Below are positions 43,285 through 46,089 of a stretch of DNA of 64,000 nt, piece after piece (position 1 is the stretch's first letter; each line of letters opens with the position of its first letter). The notes under the pieces are model-generated. The model had not been told where the DNA came from, ran no database searches, and saw nothing but the letters and a program-made list of their open reading frames with translations. Source of the stretch: a virus; IMG/VR virus record IMGVR_UViG_3300046004_000518, positions 1 through 64,000 of that record; one strand, 5' to 3'. The position numbers and the translations under genes are program-made.

Positions 43285-43313
43285 ATTATATGTGAAAAAA
43301 GGAGAATTGTCAA
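43285..43313 (-). promoter_or_regulatory. consensus sigma70 promoter for dnaJ-clpA (probably leaderless)
   Basis: TTGACA-N17-TATAAT, 7 nt before ATG. Confidence 0.85.
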
Positions 43314-43326
43314 GCTCTCCTTTTTA
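43295..43326. terminator. intrinsic terminator of the lysis operon
   Basis: aaaaaaggaga-attgtcaagc-tctcctttttt; T-tracts on both strands. Confidence 0.75.
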
Positions 43327-43349: not shown

Positions 43350-43586
43350 TTAAGTTTTCTTTCTACGTAACGGTCTATTTGGATCTACAGCCACTGGTTC
43401 AGGTGCAACTTCAGTTTCCTCAGCAATTTCAACCATTTCCTGTCCCACTGCTATTTCTGCAATCTCAAAAGTTTCAACAACCGATTCGACTGTCTCGGCT
43501 ATTGGCTGCGCATCTGTCGGACTACTTTGGCTTAACCAGACTGGTTCTGAAGGACTTGTTACAGGGGTGTCCTCAAACCCTGTTAC
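43350..43586 (-). CDS. -1 frame extension of the holin (78 codons), predicted programmed frameshift product
   Basis: Open -1 frame beginning at the slippery site, closed upstream by TGA, no early start codon; acidic E/V/P/A-rich with basic end. Confidence 0.65.
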   Translation of the reverse strand, partial: VTGFEDTPVTSPSEPVWLSQSSPTDAQPIAETVESVVETFEIAEIAVGQEMVEIAEETEVAPEPVAVDPNRPLRRKKT

Positions 43587-43592
43587 TTTCCC
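43551..43592 (-). promoter_or_regulatory. -1 frameshift signal: G GGA AAG plus H-type pseudoknot
   Basis: GGGAAAG-uaaca-GGGU-uu-GAGGAC-ACCC-cuguaacaa-GUCCUU. Confidence 0.7.
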
Positions 43593-43873
43593 GCATCACC
43601 GTTTTCAATTGATGCTACTTTTTCTTTACCACGTGTCCAAGCTGCAATACCTAAGATAGCACCCATGGAGATATGGTACAAACCACCACCTTGAAGTGTT
43701 AGCGGTACCCACATACCTACTGCCTGTCCAGGATTCCAATATTGAAGTAAGTTGAATAAGATTGGACCTAAGATAAAGTCAAACCAAATTGTAGCCATGT
43801 ATGTAATAGCCATTAATGGGCGCCATTTGCTGGTCATCCAATCTTCTGATTTTTTTTCTGCTGCTGTTACCAT
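43583..43873 (-). CDS. holin-like membrane protein
   Basis: WRPLMA...FDFILGP...W.PLTLQGGGLYHISMGAILG...RGKEK; last gene of the lysis cassette. Confidence 0.7.
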   Translation of the reverse strand: MVTAAEKKSEDWMTSKWRPLMAITYMATIWFDFILGPILFNLLQYWNPGQAVGMWVPLTLQGGGLYHISMGAILGIAAWTRGKEKVASIENGDAGK

Positions 43874-43919: not shown

Positions 43920-44129
43920 TTAACTTACTGCGCTGGCTAGATCAATTAAATCATTAATTATTTCGTTTAATTGACTTAATTTTGCTAGATCACCGGCCGC
44001 TGCTTCAATAACTTTAGTGCTTTGTAAATCTTTAAGTAATTCTTTATATTCACTCGGCGATAGCTTACCAGCTGTAAATTCTGCTTCTAATGCATGTACT
44101 TCTATTAATACATTGTCTACACTGCTCAT
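43920..44129 (-). CDS. hypothetical protein
   Basis: 69-aa ORF, ATGA overlap. Confidence 0.65.
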   Translation of the reverse strand: MSSVDNVLIEVHALEAEFTAGKLSPSEYKELLKDLQSTKVIEAAAGDLAKLSQLNEIINDLIDLASAVS

Positions 44130-44539
44130 CTTGGTTTGGCTCCTATTACTGTTTTCATTGTACCTGAACTATTTTCTATATTATTAAATTTAAGTTCGCA
44201 GTATTTTTGACTCACAACTTCGCCGCTATCGTAACGCTCTTTGAGACCTTTGGTAATAGCTGCAAGTTCTGTAGTCATTGTTATTGTATCTTTATTTTGT
44301 GGAATACTTGCTGAATAGTTACGTAGTTCAATACTCTTAACATAAACGGTGTCTACATACACTAGCACTTCTTTAGTACCACATTTAGTTACACCTACTT
44401 GTGCTTGTGTATGGATTTGATTAACTAAACTATATTCGTTGCTGTCAAACCTAGCCATACGATACGCATCAATTATTGTACTAATACTAGCACACCCCGA
44501 CAATAGAACTACTAGACTAACTAAGGCTAGTTTTTTCAT
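44126..44539 (-). CDS. lipoprotein
   Basis: Lipobox LLSGC after a basic/hydrophobic signal. Confidence 0.75.
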   Translation of the reverse strand: MKKLALVSLVVLLSGCASISTIIDAYRMARFDSNEYSLVNQIHTQAQVGVTKCGTKEVLVYVDTVYVKSIELRNYSASIPQNKDTITMTTELAAITKGLKERYDSGEVVSQKYCELKFNNIENSSGTMKTVIGAKPR

Positions 44540-44796
44540 TTAATTTCCTCGTAGATACGACGTTGTTCTTTATACCAAATACCCCAGGCTTCGTGTTTGG
44601 CCTGGCACTCATAGTAGGTGCTGTAATTTTCTGTAACATTACCTACAACATCACTTAATTTGTTAGTGTCTGTTGGTAGTTGTTTAAGAATCGGACAATC
44701 TATAGCAAGTTCACTAGGAACATCCGGAAATGGTGCTTTAACTGGCACTAGAGTTGAGCAACCTGAGAGTAATAATACTGCTAATAGATATCTCAT
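44536..44796 (-). CDS. o-spanin (Rz1-like lipoprotein)
   Basis: Lipobox LLSGC, Pro-rich, two further Cys, follows the i-spanin. Confidence 0.8.
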   Translation of the reverse strand: MRYLLAVLLLSGCSTLVPVKAPFPDVPSELAIDCPILKQLPTDTNKLSDVVGNVTENYSTYYECQAKHEAWGIWYKEQRRIYEEIK

Positions 44797-45242
44797 TTAG
44801 TTTCTCCCACTGGTTTCTCTGCGGCCTTGTTTAGTAGTTCGATAGCTTCTTTAGGCACCACACATTCACCGTTGATAATCTTTTCTTTCTCTACAATTTC
44901 TTTCTGTAGTTGGACCTGTACTTCTTTAATTTTTTTGATCTTAGTAACTACTTTAGTTTTGATCACTGTGTTTGTTTCTTGGCTTTTAACCACAGCCGCA
45001 TCTATTTTTGCCTGTAATTCTGCGGCACGTTCTCTCCATTGTGTTTCAACTTCGTAGCCGCCTTTAAAATACACACCTGCTACCAACAGCATGATACCTA
45101 CAACCTGTACTATTAGTCGATAGGGTCTAAGATAACTAAAATTGAATACAAAACCTAATAATGAAGTAATGATACCAGCATAGAATACTAAATTAACAAA
45201 CGCATGCAAGATGCTATCTGGAATAAATGTCAACATCCACAT
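44793..45242 (-). CDS. i-spanin (Rz-like)
   Basis: N-terminal TM segments, coiled coil, C-terminal Cys; follows the endolysin. Confidence 0.75.
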   Translation of the reverse strand: MWMLTFIPDSILHAFVNLVFYAGIITSLLGFVFNFSYLRPYRLIVQVVGIMLLVAGVYFKGGYEVETQWRERAAELQAKIDAAVVKSQETNTVIKTKVVTKIKKIKEVQVQLQKEIVEKEKIINGECVVPKEAIELLNKAAEKPVGETK

Positions 45243-45243
45243 A

Positions 45244-46089
45244 TTATTCTCCTAACATTTTTTTGATAGTTGCTGGACCAACAATACCATCTGCTGTCAA
45301 ACCATGTGCTGTTTGCCACGCTTTAACTGCTTTCTCTGTACCTGGACCAAACTTACCATCTGCTGTTTGTCCTAATGCTTTTTGTACCGCTTTGACTGTG
45401 TCGTTATTGCTGCCTACACGCACTGTTACGTACTCTGTAGCAGACGCAGGCGCCGCATGTGACTCTGCTACATGCCCACCACCTAACAAGTGTTTAGCTT
45501 CTTTGTAGTGCTTTGTACGATCTTCTAGGCCAATTGTACCACCGTTAATACGTTTGGTCATTTTAACTATATCATCTGCATCACATATAGCATTTAAGCC
45601 ATTTGTTTTCCAGAACCAACAAGCTGATTCAATGGCACCATCTAAGGTTTCTAAGTCAGCCACTGCTTCTTCTACTGTCATGCCTACTGATTTAGCAAAC
45701 TTAGTATAGTTATCACGACCAGTTAGTTGGATAGCACCGCGACCACAGAACTTAAATCCATCACCACTGGACTCTGGGCCATTGCCCATACGTCCACCGT
45801 AGACTTTGTTAGCAATCTTTTCTGGTTGACGATTGTATGGTTGCGCACTTGCTAGTGTAGGGAAGTATTTTTTAAAGATCTTACTTAAACCCTCTGCTGA
45901 GTAGTTTAAGTTTTCTTTAAGAATTGTAAAGCCTGCTGACTCATGCCCGCATTGTGCTAGGAAACCTGCAGCACGATTAACTGTGTTAATCTCGTACTTT
46001 TCAAATTGCTCTGTAAGTACTTCTGCCAGGTCTTCTGGATGCTTGTACTTGGGAAATAGTGCTTTGATTAAACCTGCTGTAATTTGCAT
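45244..46089 (-). CDS. GH19 endolysin with C-terminal peptidoglycan-binding domain
   Basis: FLAQCGHES, ENLNYS, GRGAIQLTGRDNY, TKRINGG; DGKFGPGT/DGIVGPAT PG-binding repeats. Confidence 0.92.
   Translation of the reverse strand: MQITAGLIKALFPKYKHPEDLAEVLTEQFEKYEINTVNRAAGFLAQCGHESAGFTILKENLNYSAEGLSKIFKKYFPTLASAQPYNRQPEKIANKVYGGRMGNGPESSGDGFKFCGRGAIQLTGRDNYTKFAKSVGMTVEEAVADLETLDGAIESACWFWKTNGLNAICDADDIVKMTKRINGGTIGLEDRTKHYKEAKHLLGGGHVAESHAAPASATEYVTVRVGSNNDTVKAVQKALGQTADGKFGPGTEKAVKAWQTAHGLTADGIVGPATIKKMLGE

Follow-up and report, generated by a model that had tools for sequence, protein, structure and literature searches.

A putative -1 ribosomal frameshift at the 3' end of a holin-family gene in uncultured freshwater large phages

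Introduction

Among the described recoding systems, the lambda G/GT tail-assembly-chaperone genes are close to the present case, with the heptamer G_GGA_AAG near the end of a short open reading frame (ORF). The slip there adds a C-terminal extension, so that two proteins sharing their N-terminal part arise at a fixed ratio, an arrangement conserved across many phages. The same heptamer is found at the end of the holin-family gene considered here, which lies on the minus strand of a 64,000-nucleotide stretch (hereafter the window; positions 1 to 64,000 of the IMG/VR record IMGVR_UViG_3300046004_000518) of an uncultured phage from lake water. By the comparison of its relatives, this gene very probably yields, besides a product of 96 amino acids, a long isoform of 174 amino acids by -1 frameshifting at G_GGA_AAG with a downstream pseudoknot, as had been proposed in a preliminary description of the locus made from its letters. 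The lambda proteins are soluble chaperones encoded at another genome position, and their extension is a folded domain, whereas the product here is a predicted membrane holin with a predicted disordered tail; the lambda site is not known to depend on a strong downstream structure, in contrast to the covarying pseudoknot of the present locus.

Holins are the clocks that time the burst of the phage-infected cell, and their known single-gene tuning is a start-codon pair that yields a holin and an antiholin. Thus, the dual starts of lambda S105/S107 and of phage 21 S68/S71 give, from one holin gene, two membrane proteins differing at one charged end, and the ratio of holin to antiholin sets the lysis timing. 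By analogy, the same logic of a ratio that sets the timing is the function suggested for the window gene, with the difference that 2-3 N-terminal residues are changed by alternative initiation in the former, whereas 78 C-terminal residues would be added by elongation recoding in the latter. In the E. coli gene dnaX (tau/gamma) a heptamer is likewise combined with a downstream structure, and the slipped ribosome meets a stop at once, which gives the short product; the window gene would have the opposite polarity, the slip lengthening the protein, and a conserved upstream Shine-Dalgarno-like stimulator is absent from its class A relatives (see below). The T7-like capsid proteins 10A/10B, described in phage genome papers, are a case of a late phage gene with a minor C-terminally extended isoform made by -1 frameshifting near its end; they are structural proteins, and the site type and the function differ. 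The IS3/IS911-type signals (A_AAA_AAG or A_AAG with a pseudoknot or stem-loop) share with the window element a bacterial motif ending in AAR and a compact H-type pseudoknot, but they fuse two transposase ORFs and have no sequence similarity to it.

In E. coli only two other -1 motifs rival G_GGA_AAG, which is one of the top three in efficiency; V_VVA_AAR is an efficient class there, and the IS3 pseudoknot lifts G_GGA_AAG to among the highest efficiencies (PMC4066793). Full-text searches combining holin and frameshifting returned no report of holin isoforms made by frameshifting, the matches being only genome papers with frameshifts in tail or capsid genes. Holins are not mentioned in the PRFect paper, which mentions lysins and the MS2 lysis gene, nor in the 2025 survey, nor in the accessible part of the 2016 recoding review. 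The locus therefore appears to carry a classical -1 frameshift signal in a gene class for which a published description was not found.

The slip site and its conservation

The 96-amino-acid ORF ends with GCG GGA AAG TAA, and the heptamer lies in phase at its end (Table 1). The -1 frame is closed by TGA two codons ahead of the heptamer and then stays open for 78 codons up to the terminator region, with the first ATG, GTG or TTG at codon 47, so that its first half is free of start codons; in all of this the preliminary description, including its position of the heptamer at 43592-43586, was borne out. An early stop of the dnaX type is not found at this site. Read from the last G of AAG, the -1 frame gives VTGFEDTPV...VAVDPNRPLRRKKT with the C-terminus DPNRPLRRKKT, and its joining at the slip site (...DAGK-VTGFEDTPV...) would produce the 174-amino-acid isoform, with DAGKVTGFEDTPV as the predicted junction peptide.

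Hundreds of relatives were collected by protein searches, and DNA was obtained for 193 loci, taken from IMG/VR and from metagenome contigs and mostly of lake or other freshwater origin. After deduplication the loci were assigned to class A (48 sequences, window-like), class B (51, with a C-terminal tail in frame) and class C (31, short, without the tail and without the heptamer). The heptamer GGGAAAR is in phase in 48 of the 48 distinct class A sequences, with the zero-frame stop 0, 3 or 9 nucleotides past it. The codon ahead of GGA is NCG in all 48, encoding Ala in 31, Ser in 13, Pro in 3 and Thr in 1, while NCG makes up only 10% of the NCN codons in the holin cores; the glycine codon of the heptamer is likewise GGA in every one of the 48, against a share of 12% among the glycine codons of the cores. 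Rare codons that are invariant while the encoded amino acid varies indicate a constraint on the nucleotides and not on the protein. The conservation of the heptamer in homologous holins, which the preliminary description had named as a check, was thus confirmed. The exact 96-amino-acid protein is present on 29 contigs. An upstream GGUGAU, which resembles a Shine-Dalgarno sequence, was considered as a stimulator and rejected, as it is not conserved in the relatives (alignment of 47 class A sequences).

In a rough tree of the cores, built on about 83 residues and used only for the interleaving of the architectures and not for the order of events, class A, the in-frame forms and the mirror forms described below are interleaved among close relatives. 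In class C loci (L059, L060, L081, L084 and others) the next gene overlaps the holin end and encodes a protein of about 144 amino acids with a coiled coil and a C-terminal transmembrane helix, which may be a separate lysis regulator in place of the tail. A relative of 150 amino acids on a Joint Genome Institute (JGI) contig, P0034, has a gene call that leaves the holin core and then follows the +1 frame through the tail region (RENNGVRNSPRSK...), probably owing to a one-base error or mutation in its contig, and is an example of automatic annotation mishandling the locus.

The pseudoknot

Downstream of the heptamer an H-type pseudoknot was recognised from the stem pairing and the alignment of the relatives, with a spacer of 2-5 nucleotides depending on the register of stem 1 (S1). 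A simple pseudoknot finder run over 25,520 window positions gave an equal or better element at 15 of them (0.06%). The nested minimum free energy fold of the region was not exceptional against shuffles (z = -1.2), so that the case for the pseudoknot rests on the relatives and not on folding energy. All the 47 other class A sequences pass the finder, and 37 do so even with strict thresholds, the background rate in the window being 0.06-0.34%.

In an ungapped alignment of 47 class A sequences (A2), scored with the pseudoknot written in, 88% of the cells are paired, and sliding the partners lowers this share to 60% or less. In stem 2 (S2) the paired share is 94%, and three of the six pairs are changed on both sides (GC/AU, AU/GC, CG/AU/GC), which for S2 bears out the stem covariation looked for in homologues. 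Double-change cells numbered 29 against 7.4 +/- 2.1 in shuffles, a comparison that is indicative and not exact, since the set consists of relatives and itself served to derive the structure; this relatedness, together with the coding role of the S2 arms, makes the shuffle controls overstate the significance. The S2 variants include GGAACA:UGUUCC, GAAACA:UGUUUC, GAAGA:UCUUC, GAGGAC:GUCCUU and GGAGA:UCUCC, and the amino acids encoded by the arms vary with the pairs (GT..VP, ED..SS, ED..SP, GD..SP, ET..VS); the change of the encoded residues along with the pairs points to selection on the RNA. The S2 register of the preliminary description is one of two possible in the window phage, although most relatives use a register shifted by one base. 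Rfam searched at permissive thresholds gave chance-level matches only, with no family fitting the element.

The tail as a translated protein

Despite strong divergence and length changes, 43 of the 44 complete -1 ORFs of class A are open for 61-92 codons, so that the open -1 frame, which the preliminary description had named as a check in homologues, was recovered, under protein-level selection. The tail ends with D-P-N-R-P-x-R-R in 43/43 complete tails, while the codons of this terminal motif switch synonymously (Arg CGN/AGR, Leu TTR/CTN), the entropy by codon position being 0.66, 0.23 and 1.02, with the variation mostly in the third position. None of the class A sequences has ATG, GTG or TTG within the first 15 tail codons, and four tails have no such codon at all.

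The class A tails are acidic and proline-rich, with almost no basic residue before the basic end: lysine and arginine average 0.33 outside the last 10 residues and 5.2 within them. In the AlphaFold model of P0127, a long homologue with the tail in frame, the tail residues 97-155 have a predicted local distance difference test score (pLDDT) below 50, the C-terminal tip being somewhat higher. The acidic, probably disordered tail of the preliminary description is therefore upheld in its acidic stretch and low-confidence model, but it is acidic only up to the conserved basic tip (RPLRRKK). The tail alone had no match among the Pfam and PHROG families.

Relatives with cores 80-89% identical carry a homologous tail in frame. 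Thus, the -1 tail of L009 reads QPQWITPSPEV...DFGSAPPAFGDAP...DDPNRPLRRKK, and L132 has the same in frame, the segments common to -1 and in-frame tails being QPQW[IV]TPSPEV, DFGSAPPAFGDAP and DDPxRPLRR. A homologous tail that is in frame in close relatives argues that the tail is a real protein attached to the membrane core, which in class A would be accessible only by a -1 shift at the heptamer. A contig variant from an RNA library has an in-frame deletion of 135 nucleotides (45 codons) within the tail (window 43412-43548), so that the tail length is polymorphic among coexisting strains and changes by whole codons.

Fold and termini of the predicted protein

The gene product is predicted to be a small membrane protein with two helices that belongs to the GTA_holin_3TM family, the P0127 model having two long helices (residues 4-46 and 58-91) against the three of the family name. 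Clusters of lysine and arginine stand at both ends of the core in the sequence, which by the positive-inside rule suggests an N-in/C-in hairpin with the tail on the cytoplasmic side. The N-terminus is MVTAAEKKSEDWM..., with the second methionine 12 residues in, and the M-K-M type arrangement of lambda S-type dual starts is absent from it. This second methionine, Met13 (DWMTSKWRP; window 43873-43835, minus strand), is invariant across the family, and no ribosome-binding site was seen ahead of it; initiation there would yield a third form, shorter at the N-terminus.

Alternative explanations

The split frames might be thought to reflect one continuous 174-amino-acid ORF broken at the G and A runs by a single-base error of assembly or sequencing, the more so as some relatives have the tail in frame and the P0034 call shows that errors or mutations occur nearby. 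This explanation is effectively refuted by the 48 distinct sequences from many independent metagenomes that share the frame arrangement, by the 29 contigs with the exact short protein, and by the contigs of four runs from three samples that cross the heptamer without an indel. Two of these runs are independent DNA runs and two are RNA-library runs, all of lake samples, and no difference was found at the site, although the comparison used assembled contigs, from which depth, transcript ends and rare variants are not readable. The assembly indel that the preliminary description had held out as fatal to its proposal is thus not seen in any of the four. It is also very improbable that the tail is an untranslated, decaying remnant of an in-frame extension severed by a fixed frameshift mutation, with a coincidental heptamer and fold. 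The in-frame forms, maybe ancestral, the nonsense codon acquired by the tail of L136 and the tolerance of the family for tail-less forms would fit such a history; yet stops and out-of-frame indels would be expected, and instead nearly every complete tail is open, the tails differ in length by whole codons (as does the coexisting strain with the deletion), synonymous changes leave the terminal motif intact, rare codons maintain the heptamer, and S2 covaries. A separate small gene with its own start, or re-initiation after the holin stop without any fusion, is scarcely credible as well. Termination and re-initiation at overlapping stop and start signals are common in phage operons, and long open -1 stretches past gene ends are frequent in the window (17/84 ORFs), a count that was discarded as uninformative because overlapping downstream genes inflate it; against this, the early part of every class A tail lacks a start codon, the conservation of the tail starts right at the heptamer (GK[VI]TG[FY]...), and the tail is covalently part of the holin in relatives. 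Transcriptional slippage, that is, stuttering of the RNA polymerase, by which some bacteria and phages reach alternative frames, has a similarly negligible chance as the source of the long form: the GGG and AAA(A) runs fall far short of the length of known slippage tracts, a conserved in-phase motif for tRNA re-pairing and a pseudoknot at frameshift spacing are not needed for it, and the RNA-library contigs are without an indel, though contigs hide rare variants.

Another explanation accepts the frameshift as real and holds that the protein is not the lysis-triggering holin but some other small membrane protein, a lysis regulator or one with another membrane function, whose tail does not serve timing. 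The 96-amino-acid product matches PF11351 (GTA_holin_3TM) with a marginal 28.2 bits against the Pfam cut-off of 24.8, over profile positions 55-117 of 123, and the long in-frame homologues reach 22-23 bits, just under the cut-off. In a tblastn search of the holin only distant matches were obtained, at 36-37% identity, in the jumbo phages Phosso and Atu_ph07, where the homologues are annotated as hypothetical proteins (174 and 127 amino acids, uninformative on the slip site) and adjoin DNA ligase genes and not lysis genes; and the family profile, compared by sequence with solved structures, had no match. Against these points, the gene closes a cassette with endolysin, Rz-like and Rz1/LysC-like genes on the same strand, PHROGs classes the protein with holins (phrog_3427 'holin', E = 4.5e-8), and the modelled small two-helix membrane hairpin with charged ends is holin-typical. 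A function other than that of the holin is accordingly unlikely, though it deserves to be kept in view.

Returning to the frameshifted two-isoform holin, several points weigh against it. Its support is all comparative. The spacer ahead of stem 1 lies near the lower limit of the usual lengths, and the S1 core GGG:CCC is invariant, with flanking pairs in two registers, so that S1 is without covariation support; to this is added the limit on the shuffle controls given above. The contigs from the RNA libraries may have DNA as their source, and slipped transcripts, if rare, would not be visible in them. In one class A locus, L136 (764-829), the tail has a nonsense codon four codons past the slip site, TAA where L014 has GAA, and this locus also has the weakest pseudoknot; the tail can thus be lost, and L136 may be a lineage losing the long isoform. 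Some relatives have the short form alone (31 sequences) and others have only an in-frame tail, which would make neither isoform indispensable to the family, and the 'holin' label rests on the marginal Pfam score and the gene context. On the other side, the comparison of relatives shows selection on the heptamer, on the pseudoknot and on the tail as a translated product, and it is by this comparison that the frameshift at GGGAAAG with a pseudoknot, giving the 96- and 174-amino-acid products, is supported.

The mirror arrangement in relatives with the tail in frame

In three IMG/VR loci of two lineages (L011, 1501-2061; and L015 with L017) the tail is in frame and G_GGU_UUU stands in phase at the homologous position, with AAU after it, which gives an immediate -1 UAA, and then a strong pseudoknot. 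As compared with class A, these mirror forms have one extra spacer base, which puts the tail in frame. The inner S1 pairs of their pseudoknot start 5 nucleotides past the heptamer, the finder extending S1 outward to 2 nucleotides in L015 and L017, and the S2 of these two loci is entirely different in sequence (GGUGCU:AGCAUC or AGCGCC). Four further in-frame loci (L019, L132, L142, L157) are without a canonical heptamer and have an in-phase U_UUU followed by AG (-1 UAG) 5-6 nucleotides before the retained pseudoknot. The arrangement of L011, L015 and L017 suggests a reversed polarity, long by default and short after the slip, with the short product expected as in dnaX. A broader reading is that the family needs tail-less and tailed subunits, with their ratio held by recoding in either polarity and the frameshift efficiency acting as the set-point of the lysis clock; this is put forward tentatively, as somewhat less than an even chance.

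The idea of reversed polarity rests on the three sequences with a canonical heptamer and the four with U_UUU only; further scans of IMG/VR with long forms as queries yielded hardly any contig beyond those collected before. It is weighed down by the absence of G_GGU_UUU from the best E. coli -1 motifs (PMC4066793). Caution is also advised by L025, which has the same ten bases as the mirror site deep in its tail without a pseudoknot; this second GGGTTTTAAT was dismissed, since G-F-N recurs as a peptide motif and would bring it about incidentally. In most of the in-frame long proteins listed, F-[NS] recurs at a distance of two codons ahead of the stem 1 G[FYW].

The gene in its genome

The window phage has a DNA polymerase 46-51% identical to those of Phosso and Atu_ph07, and a blastn search with the locus as query gave no match among 50,697 deposited phage genomes. 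The holin-family gene is the last of the lysis cassette, the features of which are collected in Table 1. The family domain appears to be divided between two genes in this phage, the 69-amino-acid ORF being, by profile coverage, the detached N-terminal part: in some relatives this part is fused to the core, and in one such fused form, P0066, the PF11351 positions 24-118 cover the residues 28-139.

Table 1. Coordinates in the window of the putative frameshift element, the holin-family gene and the neighbouring features
Feature	Position	Strand	Remarks
Holin-family ORF, zero frame	43583..43873	minus	96 amino acids (short isoform); ATG 43873, stop TAA 43585-43583
AGGAG ribosome-binding site of the 96-amino-acid ORF	43884-43880	minus	
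Slippery heptamer G_GGA_AAG	43586..43592	minus	phase X_XXY_YYZ
-1 frame extension (predicted)	43350..43586	minus	78 codons (43586-43353) and stop TAA 43352-43350
H-type pseudoknot (predicted)	43550..43583	minus	stem pairing and alignment of relatives
Stem 1	GGGU 43580-43577 / ACCC 43568-43565	minus	alternative register ACAGGG 43583-43578 / CCCUGU 43566-43561
Stem 2	GAGGAC 43574-43569 / GUCCUU 43555-43550	minus	
Terminator hairpin (read by eye)	43295..43320	minus	GGAGA/TCTCC and T-run, just past the tail stop
69-amino-acid ORF upstream of the holin core	43920..44129	minus	counterpart of the N-terminal part of the PF11351 domain
137-amino-acid lipoprotein	44126-44539	minus	between the Rz1-like gene and the holin genes
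Remainder of the lysis cassette	44536..46089	minus	upstream of the holin genes; profile matches
Rz1/LysC-like lipoprotein	44796-44536	minus	
Rz-like i-spanin candidate	45242-44793	minus	
Endolysin	46089-45244	minus	GH19 and peptidoglycan-binding domains

The 137-amino-acid lipoprotein of the cassette has weak matches to the Cor superinfection-exclusion family (E ~1e-3) and to DUF6491. The hairpin with its T-run is read as the terminator of the lysis operon, by eye only, its loop being too long for the terminator rule of the scan. A promoter scan found a perfect TTGACA-17-TATAAT promoter at 43313-43285 on the minus strand, overlapping the terminator hairpin and facing a DnaJ-like gene (43337-42444), which is followed by a ClpA/B-like gene (42431-40122).

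Proposed mechanism and its meaning for lysis

In the proposed mechanism, most ribosomes would stop at the UAA right after G_GGA_AAG and release the 96-amino-acid form, while a fixed fraction would pause on the downstream H-type pseudoknot, the tRNAs slipping back one base (GGA to GGG, AAG to AAA), and would resume reading in the -1 frame, thus making the 174-amino-acid form, in which the membrane core is unchanged. The tail of this form, predicted to lie disordered in the cytoplasm, is acidic, proline-rich and without basic residues until the basic tip. The frameshift efficiency would set the ratio of the tail-less to the tailed form, and both isoforms, sharing the core, would co-assemble in the membrane, where their ratio may tune the time of holin triggering, the job done by the dual starts in lambda S105/S107. 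That the ratio tunes the lysis timing is a possibility with nearly, but not quite, an even chance. In lambda S the charge of the C-terminal cytoplasmic domain shifts the lysis timing, so that a tail that is long and acidic and has a basic tip is plausible as a timing regulator. Both forms are expected to be competent membrane subunits rather than one of them being a pure inhibitor, because relatives live with only the short or only the long form.

A widespread group of uncultured freshwater large phages thus appears to make two holin isoforms by a -1 frameshift at the 3' end of the gene, which, if true, would add recoding to the mechanisms controlling lysis. For phage gene callers this would be a new frameshift class, the 96-amino-acid ORF being called at present with the tail left unannotated, and the cassette of heptamer and pseudoknot, about 45 nucleotides long, offers many natural variants for the study of bacterial frameshift stimulators. 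If the relatives of reversed polarity are truly such, selection would maintain the ratio of the isoforms and not either isoform, and the family would offer, as a natural experiment, a single regulatory ratio that was built a second time with the polarity reversed.

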